From an uncultured Gammaproteobacteria bacterium (GTDB taxonomy: Bacteria > Pseudomonadota > Gammaproteobacteria > Arenicellales > JAANXG01), in contig CAMYNL010000001.1 of NCBI GenBank assembly GCA_947259705.1, forward strand, positions 146,199-210,198: a stretch of 64,000 bases of DNA, given 5' to 3'. A program made the translations under genes and the position numbers. Shown piece after piece: positions 26,691 through 62,542 of the stretch; within the stretch, counting starts at the first letter, position 1; every line of letters begins with the position of its first letter. A model generated the notes under the pieces. That model ran no database searches and was not told the origin of the DNA. It saw only the letters and a list, made by a program, of their open reading frames with translations.

Positions 26691-27305
26691 TTAGTCAAAC
26701 AATGCGCTCAGCCGTCGTGCCGCGCCCCCGATATCTGCCTGACCGAACACGCCACTGATCACCGCTAGGGCGTCGGCCCCGGCTGCCAGCAAGGAACCAC
26801 CATTGTCGGCGTTGATGCCGCCGATCGCAACGATCGGCAGCGACAGCACGCCGCGCGCCTGTCGCAGCAGATTTGCTTTGGCGTGTACCGCCCCGGGTTT
26901 GACGGCGGACGGGAAGAAACTCCCGAACGCAACGTAGTCAGCCCCCCCAAGCTCGGCCGCATGCGCCAGCCGGATGTCGTTATAGCACGATACGCCGATC
27001 AGCCGGTTGCCCATCACACGACGCGCTGTCGCCAAGTCAACATCATCACGCCCCACGTGAACCCCGTCCGCGTCCACGCTCCGCGCCAACTCGACATCGT
27101 CATTGATGATCAACAAGGCGCCGAGTCTTCGGGTAAGTTCGCGTAACTGCCTGGCATGCTGCACGTAACCGGTGTCGGCACGGCGCTTGTCGCGGTACTG
27201 AACGATACCGGCGCCTCCCCTCACGGCCGCGCCAACCGACTCCAACAGCCCCGCATCGGGCGTCAACTCCGGATCAGTGATCACGTACAGGCCGCGGATG
27301 ATCAT
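26691..27305 (-). CDS. thiE: Thiamine-phosphate synthase
   Basis: GLYVITD, VQYRDK, IINDD, DGVHVG, GVSCYN, DYVAFG, AIGGI. ATGA overlap with thiD. Confidence 0.93.
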   Translation of the reverse strand: MIIRGLYVITDPELTPDAGLLESVGAAVRGGAGIVQYRDKRRADTGYVQHARQLRELTRRLGALLIINDDVELARSVDADGVHVGRDDVDLATARRVMGNRLIGVSCYNDIRLAHAAELGGADYVAFGSFFPSAVKPGAVHAKANLLRQARGVLSLPIVAIGGINADNGGSLLAAGADALAVISGVFGQADIGGAARRLSALFD

Positions 27306-28102
27306 CTGCCGTCGCGCCGATCGGGAAAGGCCTGCCCGCGACCGACCGCGTAGGCGTGACGAAGACTGTTCCAGGTGTAATCCAGCGCTGCATCCACAGC
27401 AACGGCCAGCGTGTCGCCTCTGGCGAGATACGCTGCGAGGGCCGCCCCCAGCGTGCACCCGGAGCCGTGAAAATCCGGTGCCAGTCGTGCCCATCGCGAT
27501 GCAGTCACTGTGCCATCGGGACGGTACAGGCGGTGCACCACGTCGCTGGTCGCTATGTCGTGGGTTCCGGTCACCAGCACACTGGCACGACCGCCGGCGA
27601 GCAGGCTGCGAGCGGCCTGGTCCATATCATCCGGCAGACCTGCCAATGCCAGCAACTCCGGGATATTCGGCGTCACAACGGTAGCGCGGGGCAGCAGCCA
27701 TTCGCGCAGGGCGCGCACCAGGCCGTTCTCGGCCAGCGAGGCACCCCCGCCGGCGGCCAGTACCGGGTCGACGACAAGCGGCACGGCCGATGGCAACAGC
27801 CCTACCAACTCGGCCACCGTTTCCACCACCGCCGGCGATGCGAGCATTCCGGTCTTGCAGGCGGCTATGGCCGTGTCAGCCAACAGTGCCGCAGCCTGGC
27901 GTCTCACCACCGCGGGATCGGTAACCAGGAATTCGTGTACCTTGATACTGTCTTGAATGGTGTTGGCGGTGACGACCGACAGCGGGTGGCAACCCAACGC
28001 ATGAATGGTCAAGGTGTCCGCCTGCAGTCCGGCGCCATTGGTCGGGTCGAAACCTCCAAAACACAGCACCACCGGGGGAGTATTCATGCGTGGATCGTTC
28101 AA
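27302..28102 (-). CDS. thiD: Hydroxymethylpyrimidine/phosphomethylpyrimidine kinase
   Basis: DPTNGAGLQAD, KTGML, VVDPVL, TPN..E, HGSGCTL. Confidence 0.88.
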   Translation of the reverse strand: MNDPRMNTPPVVLCFGGFDPTNGAGLQADTLTIHALGCHPLSVVTANTIQDSIKVHEFLVTDPAVVRRQAAALLADTAIAACKTGMLASPAVVETVAELVGLLPSAVPLVVDPVLAAGGGASLAENGLVRALREWLLPRATVVTPNIPELLALAGLPDDMDQAARSLLAGGRASVLVTGTHDIATSDVVHRLYRPDGTVTASRWARLAPDFHGSGCTLGAALAAYLARGDTLAVAVDAALDYTWNSLRHAYAVGRGQAFPDRRDGR

Positions 28103-28193
28103 TTCGTGATCACAGACGTCAAGGGATACCTATAATACGGACCATCAGGGCGTTGTGCCTGTTGTATCAACAACAACCTTGCGGAGTCTGCTA

Positions 28194-28364
28194 TTGGAAT
28201 TCAAGACCTATATGTGCGTTATATGCGGTTTTGTGTACGAGGAGGAGAAGGGTTTTCCTGATGGCGGGATCGCCGCCGGCACGCGCTGGGAAGACGTACC
28301 GGTGACATGGACCTGTCCGGACTGCGGCGCGGGAAAAGACGATTTCGAGATGATCGAGATCTAA
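28194..28364 (+). CDS. Rubredoxin
   Basis: CVICGFVY.E..G.P..GI..GT.WEDVP..W.CPDCG. TTG start with GGAG RBS. Confidence 0.95.
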   Translation: MEFKTYMCVICGFVYEEEKGFPDGGIAAGTRWEDVPVTWTCPDCGAGKDDFEMIEI

Positions 28365-30940
28365 CGTCCCCCGTGTGTCCTGTGGCGGCGGATACGATTT
28401 GACCGAGTAATTCCATACCGTTCGAGCTTGTAGTGCAGGGTATTGGGGCGCAGCCCGAGCAAGCGGGCCGCCTTGGCCTTGTTTCCGTCACACCGATCGA
28501 GAGTCTGCTGGATGATACCGGATTCGAACTCTGCAACCAGTTCGTCCAGAGAGCGTTCCCGGTTCACTATTTCGATGCTGTGTGTGGTGGAGAAGTCCGG
28601 GGCCTCCCGTGTCGCACCCCTGGTCTTGGTGGCAAGGAACTCGACCGTTGCGCGGCGCAGGCCGTCCAGGGTCCAGCTTGGCTCGTGCAACTTCAGCGAG
28701 CGGACCTCGGCGCGGCTCAAGCTTGTCAGTACCCCTGACTTCAGATTGAATTCCAGGGTGTAGTAATGCACCAGCAGAGGTATATCATCGCGGCGCTCGT
28801 GCAGTCTGGGAACATTGACCTCGAAGCCCTGAGTAAGGGTCTTCAGCCTTGTATCGAGAGCATCTGCTTGATCGTACCGGCAGCCAATCACGAACCGCGT
28901 CGACGGTCCGCGGCTCGCTTCGACGAGCGCGGCCAGCTTTGCCTGCGCAGCCCTATCCAGGGTTCCTGCGTCCAGAAACACCAATGTATGGTCGCTGTCG
29001 GCGCTGCAGGATTGCACCTGATCCACGGTGATTTCCTTGATGCAGCCCCGCCGATCCCCATAGCGATGCAGATAGTTCGCGGCCGCCGAAGCCAGCTCGC
29101 GGTCGTCGTAGAGCATCAGCACCGTGTCATCAAACCCGGCGTACATCTTCAAGGTTTGCAGAAAGGCGTTGAACACGGGGCTGACCCCGAGCAACGGCTG
29201 GCTGCCTTCGCGGACCAAGTAGGTGTGACGACGCAGATACATCAGAGATTCTATGCGGGTATGCATGAGCGCCTTTGACACCGGCCCGAACATCGCATCG
29301 ATAATAGCGCCGCCGGTCTGCCGGTAAGCTTGAGCAAATCGTTCGACCCCGGCACCGTAGAGCAAGCAGGCGAACGTAGACTTCAGCGTCGCCAGGTACT
29401 TTTCCAGGTCCGCTTCGTTTTCACTTACATGGCAGACCAGCAGTTCCGGTTCGCCAGCCTTGCGCAAGGCCTTCGACCGCGGACTGACGAAGGACTTCAC
29501 CACTCGGAAGTGATCGCGCAGATCCTTGAGCATAGCCTTGTCGCGACCGACGTAGGTCAGGCTCATCGCAAGGCGGGAGTCCGCAGCCTGTAGAAGCTGT
29601 TCCAGTTCCTGCGCCCCGCCGGTTCGAACCATGAACTCTTGGGAAGAACGCAGCGCCGAAGTTTCATGCTGCAGCACGTCCACCCTCTCCTGTAGCGCCT
29701 TGTTGCGTTCGGTCAGCGAATTAATTTGTCGGTTTGCGCTGCGCAGTTCGGAACGAAGGGTCACGAAGCGATCAAGAAACAGCTCCGACATCTTGCCGAA
29801 CAGCTCCTCTACGAGACGGAAATCCAGGGGCGAGTAAACCTGCTCGTTGAAGCTGTCACCGAGTAACAGCCAGCCCGAGACGCTCTCGCTGTGAGGGTAG
29901 AACGGGACGATAGCGGCGACTCCATGCGCCTTCATATGCTGATAAAGTTGCGGCTGGCTCTCGACGATTTCGTTGGCGACCAGGATGTGGTCAACCGCGC
30001 TTAGATTCTCGGGGCTCATCTGGGACATTGCCCGCGCCGTCTCGCCGGCGTAGACCACTCGGTTCGGCCCCAGCAGGGCCACTGGGCAACTCAAGGTATC
30101 GGACAATCGCTTGATGATCTGGCTGGCGGATGGAAGTTCTGCAATCTCCGAGATCAGTCGGCGGACCCGCCGGTGAAAAGCGGTCTTGCGTCGTCGCATC
30201 GGCGACCAGGGGATGAACAATTGAATATCGAAGATCCTATGTTGATAAATGGCATAGGCTGAAACCACCAGAAAAACCGTGACGGCCAACGGCAGCACCA
30301 TCGTGGCGTTGGTCCACTTGATGTCGAAACGCAGTAGACCGAACAGGGTGGTAATAAGGATGACGCTGGGCAGGGTCGCTACCAGCAGCAGCGCGTTCCT
30401 GGCCCGCTTGGCGCCGGTGTCCTGCCGCATGGCCCCATAGCTGAACAGGGTGAATATCATCAGGCTGCCGCCAATGGCGTAGAGTTCGAAGGCGACGTAT
30501 GCCGGTCCGGGGATCCGGGTCATACACTGACCGACGCGCTCGAAACCGACGATGAGGTTGGTGCCGGTGACCAATTGGATAATCAGCACCGTGGCGTAGC
30601 AATACCAGATCCAGGCCAAACGGTTGCTGGCACGTGGCCAGATGTCCTCCACCGCGACGCACAGAGCCAGATTAAGCATGATGGCGAGCGCCACGATGCC
30701 GGCGGCATAGAAGAGTCTGAACTCAAAGGTCGGCCAGTATCCCAGCGCCAGCAGATAGAAGTGGCCGATCTCAGCAATGTCCTGGATCGCCAGGGCGAAG
30801 ACTCCGCCCAGAAACAGTTGCGTTTCCTTGTTATGGGTGGGCGAATGCCTTGCGTACAGGAAGATGACGGCCTTGATCGCCAATGCCGCAAACGCCGGAG
30901 ATGAAACCGGAAACGGGTCGAATTCCATGACGACGGACAC
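28361..30940 (-). CDS. Membrane-bound regulator: 7TM sensor + GAF-like + coiled coil + degenerate receiver/AAA+ + Fis-type HTH
   Basis: About seven hydrophobic segments ending YAIYQHRIFDI; AAIVPF...GWLLLG...YSPLD (GAF-like); LLGVSP, VPRLHERRDDIPLLVHYY; C-terminal E..II..TL..CDGNKAKAARLLGL.PNTLHYKLERYG. Confidence 0.8.
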   Translation of the reverse strand: MSVVMEFDPFPVSSPAFAALAIKAVIFLYARHSPTHNKETQLFLGGVFALAIQDIAEIGHFYLLALGYWPTFEFRLFYAAGIVALAIMLNLALCVAVEDIWPRASNRLAWIWYCYATVLIIQLVTGTNLIVGFERVGQCMTRIPGPAYVAFELYAIGGSLMIFTLFSYGAMRQDTGAKRARNALLLVATLPSVILITTLFGLLRFDIKWTNATMVLPLAVTVFLVVSAYAIYQHRIFDIQLFIPWSPMRRRKTAFHRRVRRLISEIAELPSASQIIKRLSDTLSCPVALLGPNRVVYAGETARAMSQMSPENLSAVDHILVANEIVESQPQLYQHMKAHGVAAIVPFYPHSESVSGWLLLGDSFNEQVYSPLDFRLVEELFGKMSELFLDRFVTLRSELRSANRQINSLTERNKALQERVDVLQHETSALRSSQEFMVRTGGAQELEQLLQAADSRLAMSLTYVGRDKAMLKDLRDHFRVVKSFVSPRSKALRKAGEPELLVCHVSENEADLEKYLATLKSTFACLLYGAGVERFAQAYRQTGGAIIDAMFGPVSKALMHTRIESLMYLRRHTYLVREGSQPLLGVSPVFNAFLQTLKMYAGFDDTVLMLYDDRELASAAANYLHRYGDRRGCIKEITVDQVQSCSADSDHTLVFLDAGTLDRAAQAKLAALVEASRGPSTRFVIGCRYDQADALDTRLKTLTQGFEVNVPRLHERRDDIPLLVHYYTLEFNLKSGVLTSLSRAEVRSLKLHEPSWTLDGLRRATVEFLATKTRGATREAPDFSTTHSIEIVNRERSLDELVAEFESGIIQQTLDRCDGNKAKAARLLGLRPNTLHYKLERYGITRSNRIRRHRTHGGR

Positions 30941-31035: not shown

Positions 31036-31062
31036 AAAAAAGCGCCGTATAGGCGCTTTTTT
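31036..31062. terminator. Intrinsic terminator downstream of rpmE (symmetric, potentially bidirectional)
   Basis: AAAAAA-GCGCC-GTATA-GGCGC-TTTTTT. Confidence 0.85.
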
Positions 31063-59703: not shown

Positions 59704-60690
59704 ATGGAGATCGGGCCTTACCAACTTTCCAATAACGTAGTGCTAGCGCCGATGGCGGGGGTAACTGATCTGCCGTTTCGCCGTTTGTGCCGGCAATGGG
59801 GCGCCGGGCTCACGGTATCGGAGATGATATCGGCTGACGCGACGCTGCGCGATACGTCGAGAACGCGCCGCCGAATGAATCATGATTCGGAGCCGGCGCC
59901 GGTTACCGTGCAGATCGCGGGCGCGGATCCATCGATGCTGGCGGACGCGGCGCGCTACAACGTTGAATGCGGCGCGCACATCATCGACATCAACATGGGT
60001 TGCCCAGCCAAAAAAGTCTGCCGCAAGCGTGCCGGATCAGCGCTGTTGTCTGACGAGAAGCTGGTGGCCCGGATCTTTGAGGCAGTGGTTAGCGCGGTGC
60101 CGGTGCCGGTGACAATCAAGATCCGCACCGGTCCGCACCCCGGTCGGCGGAACGCCGTGGCAGTGGCCAGGTTGGCGGAGGCCGCCGGCATCCAGGCCAT
60201 CTCGGTACACGGACGAACCAGGGCGTGCGGGTTTCACGGGGCCGTTGAATACGACACCGTGCGGGAGGTGAAGCGATCCGTGGACGTCCCGGTGATTGTG
60301 AACGGTGACATTGACAGCCCGCACAAGGCGGCAGAGGCGCTGCAGTACACCGGGGCGGACGGGGTAATGATAGGGCGCGCAGCGCAAGGCCGCCCGTGGC
60401 TGCTGGGTCAGGTGGCGGCTTATCTGGAAACCGGCACCGTGCCTGCGGAGCCTGCTCGGGAGGCGCAGCGACGCGCGTTGCTGACGCATTTGGTTAACCT
60501 GTACGCTTTCTATGGTGAGCGACGAGGTGTGCGCATCGCGAGAAAACACATTCACTGGTATACGAAAACAATAAGCGAAGGGGAGAAATTGTGGCACTGC
60601 GTGAATCAAGTCGAGGATTCGAAGCAGCAGTACCGGCTGATGGCGGAGTACTTCCATCCGGCGCGACATATATATTTGCGGGCGGCATGA
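59704..60690 (+). CDS. dusB: tRNA-dihydrouridine synthase B
   Basis: LAPMAGVTD.PFR, QIAG, IDINMGCPAKKV, HGRTR, NGDI, MIGRAAQGRPW. Confidence 0.95.
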   Translation: MEIGPYQLSNNVVLAPMAGVTDLPFRRLCRQWGAGLTVSEMISADATLRDTSRTRRRMNHDSEPAPVTVQIAGADPSMLADAARYNVECGAHIIDINMGCPAKKVCRKRAGSALLSDEKLVARIFEAVVSAVPVPVTIKIRTGPHPGRRNAVAVARLAEAAGIQAISVHGRTRACGFHGAVEYDTVREVKRSVDVPVIVNGDIDSPHKAAEALQYTGADGVMIGRAAQGRPWLLGQVAAYLETGTVPAEPAREAQRRALLTHLVNLYAFYGERRGVRIARKHIHWYTKTISEGEKLWHCVNQVEDSKQQYRLMAEYFHPARHIYLRAA

Positions 60691-60929
60691 ACAGCAAGGG
60701 CGCGGATCTACTGAGTCAGTGCGTAAGCCGTTCCCTGAAACGGTATTTCAGGGACCTCAACGGAGAGGAGCCGGCCAACCTCTACAGCATGGTAATGCAC
60801 GAGATAGAAAAACCATTGCTTGAGGTGGTGATGCAGCAGGCGCAGAGCAATCAAACCCGGGCGGCCCAGATGCTGGGCATCAACCGCAACACGCTGCGCA
60901 AGAAGCTGAAACAATACCAGCTGGATTGA
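60687..60929 (+). CDS. fis: DNA-binding protein Fis
   Basis: [42 protein letters not shown] overlap with dusB. Confidence 0.95.
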
Positions 60930-60973
60930 TCGCGCCGCGCCGCGCGCTTGTCAACGCACACACACGGTGGTCT

Positions 60974-62542
60974 ATGTCTGACGTTACGCCCCTTAGGCGC
61001 GCCTTGATCAGCGTGTCCGATAAGACAGGTGTTGTCGATTTTGCCCGTACCCTGCAGAGGGCCGGGACCGAGATCCTGTCCACCGGCGGTACCGCGAACC
61101 TGCTCGCCGACAATGATATCCCGGTCAAGGAAGTCGCAGCCCATACTGGTTTCCCGGAGATGATGGATGGCCGCGTCAAGACGCTCCATCCGGTCATACA
61201 CGGCGGCATCCTGGGACGTCGCGGCCTTGACGAGGGGGTAATGCAGGAACATGGAATTGCGCCCATAGATCTGGTGGTGGTCAACCTCTATCCGTTCGAA
61301 CAGGCTGTATCGGATCCAACCTGCACGCTGAGCAAAGCGATAGAGAATATCGACATCGGCGGTCCGACCATGGTCCGTGCGGCGGCAAAGAACAGCGCCG
61401 CCGTCACCGTGGTGGTGGACAGCGAGGATTACGACACGGTGGCCGCGGAGCTGTCCGCGATGGGGGGAATAACCGCCACCACCCGATTTCGGTTGGCCGT
61501 CAAGGCGTTCGAGCACACCGCGCGTTACGAAGGCGCGATTGCCAACTATCTCGGACGCGTCAGGGATGGGGGGGAGATCACGGACTTTCCAAATACCATC
61601 AATCTGCAGTTTCATCAGGCCCAAGTGATGCGATACGGCGAGAACCCGCATCAAAAGGCCGCCTTCTATGTTGAGCGCTCACTGGAGGAACCGAGTGTGG
61701 CGACCGCGCGTCAGCTGCAAGGCAAGGAATTGTCTTTCAATAACATCGCGGACACCGATGCGGCACTCGAGTGCGTCAAGCAGTACGACGAAGCACCGGC
61801 CTGCGTCATCGTCAAGCATGCCAATCCGTGCGGTGTTGCACTCGACGACTCCCTGCCGGGCGCCTATGACCGCGCCTATGCCACTGACCCCGAGTCGGCG
61901 TTCGGGGGTGTCATCGCGGTCAACCGGGAACTCGATGAGCAGACCGCCCGGTTGATCGCGGAAAGGCAGTTCGTGGAGGTGATCGTCGCGCCCGCCGTCG
62001 GCACCGAGGCCGCTTCCATTATTGCGGCGAAGAAGAACGTACGACTGCTGGTATGCGGGTACTGGACTGCGGAACAGGCTTGGCGTCTGGATTTCAAGCG
62101 CGTGAAGGGGGGGCTGCTGGTCCAGGACGCGGATCTGGACCTTTACCGGGAGCTGAAAGTGGTAACGCGGCGGGAACCCACCGATGCGGAGAAGGAAGAC
62201 CTGCTGTTCAGCTGGCGGGTTGCGAAGTTCGTTAAGTCAAATGCCATTGTGTATGGTAAGGGGCGCATGACCATTGGTGTCGGGGCCGGGCAAATGAGTC
62301 GCGTGAACTCGGCGAGGATCGCCGGTATCAAGGCCGAGCATGCGGGACTGTCGGTGCGAGGGTCGGTCATGGCATCTGACGCATTTTTCCCCTTTCGTGA
62401 CGGCATTGATGCGGCCGCGGCGTCGGGCATCACCGCCGTGGTCCAGCCCGGCGGCTCGATACGAGACCAGGAGGTTATTGCCGCCGCCGACGAGCATGAC
62501 ATGGCAATGCTGTTTACCGGCATGCGCCATTTCCGGCACTGA
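60974..62542 (+). CDS. purH: Bifunctional AICAR transformylase/IMP cyclohydrolase
   Basis: [59 protein letters not shown]. Confidence 0.98.

Follow-up and report, generated by a model that had tools for sequence, protein, structure and literature searches.

Introduction

Transmembrane transcription regulators (TTRs), which carry a DNA-binding domain and a membrane anchor in one protein, have been surveyed as a class of 50,302 proteins, 27% of them with three or more transmembrane (TM) segments, and the class takes in multi-pass members as well as "hybrid TTRs" derived from two-component parts (PMC10269533). Among the NtrC-like regulators, VpsR acts independently of sigma54 and is without residues needed for sigma54 work (PMC6158489), while the literature that we found on the seven-helix sensor domain HisKA_7TM concerns kinases (PMC5847659). 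Here we describe a gene whose product bears likeness to each of these. It lies at positions 28361-30940 on the minus strand of a 64,000-nucleotide stretch of DNA (the window) from an uncultured gammaproteobacterium of the order Arenicellales (contig CAMYNL010000001.1 of assembly GCA_947259705.1) and, as an initial annotation of the window had stated, forms a single intact frame of 859 amino acids (aa) when read from GTG 30940, uninterrupted up to the stop codon at 28361-28363. The product consists of an input part made of seven TM helices and a GAF-like domain, a linking helix of 70 residues, and an output module derived from a response regulator of the NtrC type, in which an intact Fis-type helix-turn-helix (HTH) stands behind a receiver that has lost its phosphoacceptor and an AAA+ domain that has lost its P-loop, its Walker B pair and its GAFTGA loop.

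Results

The output half is a degenerate NtrC-type module

The Fis-type HTH (HTH_8, aa 802-842, 28415-28537; like every part of the regulator, on the minus strand) is intact, as had been proposed, and with an E value of 2.4e-15 and 56.4 bits against a cut-off of 22 it is the sole Pfam match of the query above cut-off. Ahead of it stands a degenerate sigma54-activator-type AAA+ domain with its lid (aa 576-790, 28571-29215), identified by profile and Foldseek. The single-sequence match to Pfam Sigma54_activ_2 is sub-threshold (15.1 bits against 25). A profile built from 85 family members and compared with PDB sequences finds ZraR (E 5.6e-21), NtrX (1.5e-19) and PspF (3e-12), and Foldseek with the model of aa 455-859 (pLDDT 89.9, pTM 0.81) returns NtrX 5m7n (E 5e-15) followed by NtrC1, ZraR, NtrC4, LuxO, FleQ, VpsR and PspF. 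Because of these profile and structure matches the central domain is taken as a true homologue of the sigma54-interaction AAA+ domain and not as a look-alike.

Motifs of this domain were counted over the 85 aligned members, and the query was also aligned with four canonical activators, or bacterial enhancer-binding proteins (bEBPs), of its own genome. Walker A, as G..G.GK, is found in 0/85, and in the query YDDRELAS replaces GESGTGKE, with Ala in the column of the Lys. The patterns G[AS][FY]TGA and ESELFG are likewise each found in 0/85; against the four bEBPs the block carrying ESELFGH-GAFTGA is a gap, having been deleted, the R-finger region is shortened, and the canonical GNVREL has become WTLDGL. 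At Walker B the query reads FLDAG, and columns 656 and 657 of the 85 members hold D35/T17/L8 and N31/D25/G18 with no conserved DE pair, the register here being uncertain by one residue. The initial annotation's picture of a sigma54-activator-like region without Walker A and GAFTGA therefore holds across the family, and all of the motifs that it quoted are found where it had placed them (YAIYQHRIFDI at 229-239, PLLGVS at 582-587, YDDRELAS at 611-618, FLDAG at 655-659 and PRLHERRDDIPLLV from 711). Other features of the AAA+ region are kept, namely the PLxG ahead of the domain, a "GGT-L" ahead of the old Walker B and the lid motif P-x-L-x-E-R-R-x-D-L-P-L-L, with R716 and D719 invariant. Within the old P-loop, D613 is present in 82/85 members.

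The segment aa 456-575 (29216-29575) is a pseudo-receiver, a receiver fold with Cys503 at the position of the phospho-Asp. VIA aligns 117 of its residues to the XynC REC domain with Z 12.1 and an rmsd of 2.8 Å, nearly all of the 50 matches listed being receiver domains, and the segment can be aligned to the receivers of the genome's own bEBPs. Across the 85 members the acceptor column is most commonly C (61), Y (8) or A (8), and the six commonest residues, which account for 84/85 rows, are all non-Asp. The acidic pocket "DDE" has become a conserved GRDK (465-468), whose Arg takes the first pocket position (R466, 81/85), with D467 conserved in 80/85 as the one acidic pocket residue and K468 conserved also. 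A receiver-like segment without phospho-Asp, as first described, is thus what the fold comparison and the alignment return. The codon of C503 lies at 29432-29434, and C285 and C817 are also nearly invariant in the family; given the conserved neighbouring rubredoxin gene, a thiol or redox role of the pseudo-receiver is conceivable. A homodimer prediction with two copies of aa 455-859 and the family alignment, run without controls, gave a score of 0.01 against a mark of 0.42 and is read as evidence neither for nor against a dimer.

The input half is a seven-helix membrane sensor with a long helix

The seven-helix membrane domain (aa 10-231, 30248-30913) was delimited by hydropathy and Pfam; the second of its hydrophobic segments falls below the hydropathy threshold, yet is present. 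Pfam HisKA_7TM (PF16927) aligns over model positions 4-222 of 224 with 19.2 bits, the cut-off of 28.6 not being reached; the approximately seven TM helices first seen in the frame are confirmed by the hydropathy. Among relatives the same model is above cut-off in P0129 (37.5 bits) and P0167 (33.5 bits) and gives 27.1 bits in P0183, and many homologues carry a precomputed PF16927 label. Polar residues are conserved within the TM helices (K23, N54, E57, H90 and E152). The C-terminus is predicted to be cytoplasmic, because K/R-rich loops fall on alternate sides in keeping with the positive-inside rule and seven basic residues follow TM7.

A basic juxtamembrane helix and a small GAF-like domain follow (aa 232-370, 29831-30247), as read from the structure model and from Foldseek, in which the CodY GAF domain 2gx5 is matched with modest scores (E 6.4e-4, prob 1.0, TMt 0.54-0.56), beside 3p01, 3e98, 3k2n and 3cit; the proposed GAF-like segment is confirmed at that level. 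The VIA match list is filled by the receiver and hence silent on this part. In the model of aa 240-575, folded with the family alignment (pLDDT 89.5), the heptad coiled coil that had been placed at about aa 392-435 is one continuous, unbroken helix of aa 371-439 (29624-29830). This helix stands where kinase relatives have the H-box helix of HisKA, and at the position aligned with the H-box of P0183 and P0219 the query has no H-box, only a plain coiled-coil-like helix. Neither HisKA nor HATPase_c has a Pfam match in the query at E ≤ 1, in line with the initial claim that no kinase domain is present, and since only some 18 residues separate the helix from the pseudo-receiver, no DHp/CA remnant is left. 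The profile searches advised as a check for an intact AAA+ or kinase domain thus return an AAA+ domain that is homologous but degenerate and a kinase domain that is absent. With its catalytic features lost, the protein is excluded from working through kinase or ATPase activity, phospho-acceptance or sigma54 remodelling of the known kind.

The gene belongs to a family under purifying selection

Full-length proteins of the same architecture exist, as the initial annotation had asked to be checked: a word-index search returned 109 homologues (E ≤ 1e-3), of which about 85 span the full length (834-880 aa, 28-83% identity), and in an exhaustive search 131 cluster representatives were found with E ≤ 1e-30. 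Database labels of the members read "hypothetical" or "helix-turn-helix domain-containing". Scanning of species genomes located 45 family loci (L009-L053), nearly all in metagenome-assembled genomes (MAGs) of Gammaproteobacteria (Acidiferrobacterales, Arenicellales, Muproteobacteria and others), and one member, P0036, is assigned by its source to Sulfurifustis variabilis and lies on a 3.96-Mb contig. Within the window's own order the distribution is patchy, with the gene in 12/19 genomes of its own family and in 3/131 of the other families searched. Conservation is uneven along the protein: mean identity to the query is highest in the HTH (70%) and second highest in the juxtamembrane/GAF part (55%), followed by the 7TM domain and the lid (38%), the pseudo-receiver (31%), and the helix and the alpha/beta part of the pseudo-AAA (24-25%).

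Near-identical DNA occurs in sediment metagenome runs of nine studies, and in two DNA runs of different studies overlapping contigs tile the whole gene with no indel or joint. The 22 variants listed within the gene comprise 13 synonymous and 9 non-synonymous changes, giving a ratio of non-synonymous to synonymous polymorphism (pN/pS) of 0.23 on the basis of 24.9% synonymous sites (binomial P 7e-4), in a small and non-independent sample of which eight variants come from one divergent contig. Such population variants were used in place of dN/dS, as the sole metagenome locus (L073) is a 100% identical N-terminal fragment and relatives at 56% identity or less are saturated. The regulator gene is under purifying selection and is neither decaying nor an assembly chimera, the two outcomes against which the initial annotation had warned. 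A one-polypeptide transmembrane DNA-binding regulator under selection, the core of what had been claimed, is supported by HTH_8, the seven TM helices and this ratio.

The sensor is shared with kinases and with short regulators

At 25-33% identity the sensor (aa 12-432) also heads the hybrid kinases P0183 and P0219, in which HisKA, HATPase_c and a receiver follow and the H-box is located on the helix equivalent to the plain helix of the query. Many proteins of about 520 aa (e.g. P0129) consist of sensor, helix and HTH_8 only, and forms of about 660 aa occur too. The soluble proteins P0221 and P0222 (about 600 aa) begin with a genuine receiver with its Asp residues, after which come the same pseudo-receiver, pseudo-AAA and HTH; when 400 genomes of the class were searched with P0221, the matches were only to receiver domains and to the window's own gene. 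In a quick tree computed from residues 1-400 of 73 proteins (SH-aLRT support, midpoint root only) the long, short and kinase forms are interleaved, the starred branches require at least five changes of the "long" label and at least six of the "short" label, and each kinase is nested among HTH forms. This points to repeated exchange of the output on a conserved sensor and does not fit a single kinase-partner fusion with decay afterwards.

The initial annotation had derived the protein from a kinase gene fused with its NtrC-like partner, with subsequent catalytic loss, in a layout like that of PrsK/PrsR. Such a fusion is not shown by the relatives, in which sensor and output modules are shuffled, nor by the query, in which no DHp/CA remnant is found, and the PrsK/PrsR likeness does not stand, as PrsK (TIGR02916) has no match in the query at E ≤ 1 and PrsR (TIGR02915) reaches 25.1 bits against 502.6, only over aa 707-844 (lid and HTH). 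A PrsK likeness of the kinase relatives was also considered and dropped, PrsK being absent from the best 25 of their 81 and 147 matches. A further sensor part (aa 12-411, 29% identity) is found in the window's own family within a 771-aa open frame (G070:C19:19271-20440), which may be another output variant, possibly a kinase.

Relatives are encoded beside acyl-transfer and fatty-acid genes

Flanking genes were identified by clustering of open reading frames (ORFs), Pfam and NCBIfam, with counts over 45 related loci, 29 of them long-form; many of the MAGs are close kin, so that these counts overstate independence. In 18/29 long-form loci (16 from the flanking-ORF clustering, together with L023 and L029, in which an overlap filter had initially hidden the gene) the regulator is preceded, 35-509 bp upstream and in the same orientation, by a FabH-like KAS III gene. 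It reaches 235 bits to PRK09258 (cut-off 285) and keeps the Cys-His-Asn residues. These loci include a second, unrelated (paralogous) genomic context (L013-L018, L040), and in L029 the order is that of the window, rho-rpmE-[FabH-like]-regulator-rubredoxin, except that a FabH-like gene separates rpmE from the regulator. Four short forms (L041, L042, L044 and L047) have a FeeM-like N-acyl amino acid synthase gene (PF21926, E 2.5e-32) 78-181 bp upstream, as does one long form, L026, at 192 bp. In P0142 and P0167 a FabH-like part and the sensor are both contained in one protein. Furthermore, fadE/fadA/fadB-like genes are located upstream in 11/45 loci, divergently where they adjoin the regulator's unit, and a gene for a FadL-like porin downstream in 10/45. 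KAS III paralogues that route acyl-CoAs of beta-oxidation back into synthesis have been documented (PMC4549310).

The statement that the gene sits alone is accordingly correct for the window genome and the nearest relatives and fails elsewhere, where the regulator is paired with FabH-like or FeeM-like genes. The rho-rpmE side is shared only by the nearest relatives (L009-L011) and L029. On the other side a rubredoxin gene is found downstream of the regulator in 23/45 related loci, as immediate neighbour in only some of these, and thiD-thiE-hemL follow the rubredoxin gene where the locus reaches that far.

Two observations on these loci may be recorded separately. In some loci, two or three family members, short and long, are stacked in tandem round one FabH-like or FeeM-like gene (L034 2886-10592, L037 6747-11291, L044 7977-11277), as if sensors had diversified locally. 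In the second context (L013-L017) a conserved 249-aa protein (cluster 40) with no Pfam or NCBIfam match is encoded about 100-400 bp downstream of the regulator and is followed by the gene of an Rce1-like CPBP intramembrane protease, which in L012 lies directly downstream.

The gene and its surroundings in the window

The regulator is single copy in its own genome (4.05 Mb, 98.5% complete), and the G+C content of the region is even throughout. A 100% identical database protein, P0002, has 855 aa, and because of this length and of an AAGGGG 11 nt upstream, the true start is probably the ATG at residue 5 (30928), which gives 855 aa. The intrinsic terminator of rpmE, the gene directly upstream, was named in the initial annotation and can be read directly from the letters on the minus strand at 31036-31062 as a hairpin AGCGCC-TATAC-GGCGCT followed by T5. 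It was missed by a consensus scan for terminators and promoters, which also found no promoter for the regulator gene; as the rpmE terminator precedes the gene, a promoter of its own must lie within the approximately 95 bp that separate this terminator from the start codon. The rubredoxin gene is convergent (28155-28364, plus strand) and its end overlaps the stop codon of the regulator by 4 bp. Beyond it, the listed thiE-like ORF (267 aa, 26691-27494) shares about 190 bp with the end of the thiD-like ORF (27302-28102), and the real thiE start is probably further downstream than listed.

Short contigs internal to the gene (28765-28921, 29115-29626, 30078-30228 and 30356-30536) occur in two runs of oligo-dT RNA libraries from one sediment study, in four and two pieces with 93-100% likeness; their source may be expression or carried-over DNA, and transcription is therefore not claimed. 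Elsewhere in the window, at 59704-62542, is a canonical dusB-fis-purH arrangement, in which a DusB-like ORF (59704-60690) is followed by that of a small Fis-like HTH protein (end at 60929) and by a PurH-like ORF that starts at 60926, names that come from translations read by eye and an HTH match. Given this arrangement, the genome would also encode an ordinary Fis.

Discussion

We propose a model for this protein, which we consider fairly likely as a whole, in which it is a sigma54-independent, transmembrane one-component transcription regulator with an acyl or lipid-signal input; that it is a membrane regulator free of ATPase activity and phosphorylation is much firmer than the ligand part. 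The regulator would remain membrane-embedded, its C-terminus cytoplasmic, and bind DNA as a dimer via the HTH, acting at sigma70-type promoters as an activator or a repressor and operating without sigma54, ATP or phosphorylation. The switch would be a signal-induced movement of the 7TM/GAF unit that is relayed along the helix, which amounts to the logic of a histidine kinase minus the phosphorelay. The pseudo-receiver and the pseudo-AAA would provide a structural spacer or an oligomerisation scaffold, and because the helix leads directly into the HTH in natural short forms they appear dispensable. As signal we consider most likely a molecule of fatty-acyl or lipid origin, or the state of the membrane lipids, a proposal made because relatives adjoin FabH-like or FeeM-like genes near fadE, fadA, fadB and fadL. 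More speculatively, the family may be the receptor half of undescribed lipid-signal circuits in sediment Gammaproteobacteria, in which the FabH-like or FeeM-like enzyme makes a membrane-soluble acyl signal and the adjacent 7TM-GAF regulator reads it in the membrane and turns it straight into transcription, independently of a phosphorelay, ATP and sigma54. We regard this extension as rather unlikely; were it true, genomes with the receptor only would hold "solo" listeners to the signals of neighbours or to free fatty acids.

Several points weigh against the model. The DNA target, ligand, oligomeric state and membrane location are all predicted from sequence and models, and the GAF assignment is based on the modest Foldseek scores, a Pfam GAF search of the query having no match. 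D613 in the old P-loop (82/85) and the largely conserved Cys at the acceptor position (61/85) hint at a function of the "dead" domains that the model leaves unexplained. The argument from gene context is borrowed from relatives at 34-45% identity, and several of the counted loci, which belong to close kin among the MAGs, lack independence. In some loci (e.g. L033) hairpins separate the FabH-like gene from the regulator and suggest separate transcripts, and the company of rubredoxin, thiD, thiE and hemL looks like inherited gene order and not function. No FabH-like partner is present in the window genome, where the sole FabH-like match is 31% identical and adjoins a plsX-like ORF, for which reason we read it as probably the housekeeping fabH, and a FeeM search of this 98.5% complete genome gave no match. 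With neither partner found in its genome, the window copy would be a "solo" sensor without a partner enzyme. Finally, a search for a shared inverted-repeat operator, made with exact 6-mer inverted repeats in the 200 bp upstream of the regulator (30 loci) and the 300 bp upstream of the FabH-like gene (19 loci), gave nothing convincing. GCCGGC (5 loci) and TTCAAA-N2-TTTGAA (4 loci) were considered as operators and set aside, as they probably reflect near-identical MAGs or coding ends.

Other explanations account for part of the same observations. If the protein were a latent membrane precursor, a signal would trigger cleavage close to the juxtamembrane region or the helix and so free a soluble output module. 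This module does exist in soluble form behind a true receiver (P0221, P0222), and the gene of an Rce1-like CPBP protease is the second gene after the regulator in L013-L017 and the first in L012. However, no conserved protease gene is found in the main context or in the window, the juxtamembrane/GAF part is among the best conserved, as expected for signal relay and unlike a cleavable linker, the short forms of helix and HTH retain the same design, and known transmembrane regulators can act from the membrane (PMC10269533), so that we hold regulated proteolysis to be distinctly improbable. The retention of the AAA+ fold and lid motifs at high model confidence despite catalytic loss, together with the resemblance of the genome's canonical activators to the regulator in lid and HTH (seven further matches; four activators aligned), would suit a membrane-tethered decoy or anti-activator that sequesters or joins true sigma54-activator rings, or a mere DNA-membrane tether. 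Against such a role, the alpha/beta part of the pseudo-AAA is the least conserved (25% mean identity) and the HTH the most (70%), short forms without the AAA+ domain still keep the HTH, and the surface loops of ring contact and the R-finger region are shortened; it appears to us less probable still than proteolysis.

The intact receiver fold (Z 12.1) and the conservation of D467 (80/85) and K468 might also be taken to mean that the protein is still phospho-regulated, with an orphan kinase phosphorylating a non-canonical residue of the pseudo-receiver and the 7TM domain serving only as an anchor. This we judge very unlikely, as the acceptor column is dominated by C, Y and A, with the six commonest residues (84/85 rows) all non-Asp, Arg is at the first position of the acidic pocket (R466, 81/85), the 7TM and GAF parts are conserved in a sensor-like and not an anchor-like manner, and where relatives have a true receiver it adds to the pseudo-receiver and does not replace it. 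The missing catalytic motifs and the absence of a functional partner gene beside the regulator in the window genome are, in the end, what an artefact, either a chimeric assembly or a functionless decaying fusion gene, would also produce. To this we give practically no credence, given full-length homologues in over 100 independent assemblies including the complete genome of a named species, tiling of the gene without indel or joint by contigs from two DNA runs of different studies, the pN/pS of 0.23, and AlphaFold confidence of about 90 for both cytoplasmic halves. A membrane-bound, sigma54-independent one-component regulator remains our preferred reading.

As such it offers a natural example of a two-component design reduced to one protein. 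The occurrence of the same sensor on a kinase, directly on an HTH, or on an HTH via a fossil NtrC core provides a comparative series on what the dead domains contribute, and the 7TM/GAF/Fis-HTH architecture is added to the transmembrane regulators, whose access to DNA from the membrane remains poorly understood. The recurring pairing with FabH-like, FeeM-like and fad genes is furthermore a concrete lead towards lipid sensing or lipid signalling among the sulfur-oxidising bacteria of sediments.

Comparison with known systems

The initial annotation had ranked the gene as the best candidate in the window for an undescribed system. As a kind of system it is not undescribed, given that TTRs (PMC10269533) and the sigma54-independent, NtrC-like VpsR (PMC6158489) are known. 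With HTH_8 and seven TM helices the regulator comes under the TTR definition of a DNA-binding domain plus at least one TM segment in one protein (PMC10269533). As in ToxR, CadC, TcpP, TfoS and ChiS, membrane segments and a DNA-binding domain are placed in one polypeptide without a separate kinase and regulator. In the classic TTRs, however, a winged-helix or AraC domain is N-terminal, the TM helices number one or two and the sensor is periplasmic, whereas the protein described here has a 7TM bundle with a cytoplasmic GAF-like sensor, and its Fis-type HTH is C-terminal, behind a dead receiver and AAA+ domain. The main text of the TTR survey mentions neither HTH_8 nor NtrC, and its supplementary tables may list such proteins (PMC10269533).

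The NtrC-family bEBPs, especially those that are sigma54-independent (NtrX, VpsR, and FleQ at some promoters), share with the output half the order and folds of receiver, AAA+ and Fis-HTH. These sigma54-independent regulators (NtrX, VpsR, FleQ) still bind nucleotide. They are soluble, whereas the regulator described here hangs on a membrane sensor, and in it the P-loop is gone (0/85), the GAFTGA loop is deleted and the acceptor Asp is lost. The HisKA_7TM sensor kinases (PF16927) have an N-terminal seven-helix domain whose model aligns with the query over its full length, at a sub-threshold score, but the H-box, HisKA and HATPase_c are found only in the kinases.

As a lead only, the lipid input may be compared with synthase-receptor pairs of the LuxI/LuxR type and with fatty-acid-responsive regulators of the FadR/PsrA type. 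In relatives the gene immediately ahead of the sensor-regulator codes for an acyl-transfer enzyme (FeeM-like or FabH-like), in the manner of LuxI/LuxR, with genes of fatty-acid uptake and degradation flanking, and the window copy, which has no synthase, resembles a solo LuxR-type receptor. LuxR and FadR, on the other hand, have no sequence or fold relation to the regulator, the receptor here is an integral membrane protein, and the pairing is absent from the window genome. Our literature search found no description of an architecture combining a 7TM and GAF sensor, a dead receiver/AAA+ core and a Fis HTH, though the supplementary tables of the TTR survey may count such proteins. TTRs and sigma54-independent NtrC-like regulators are thus already known, and what is new is this architecture together with its link to FabH-like and FeeM-like enzymes.

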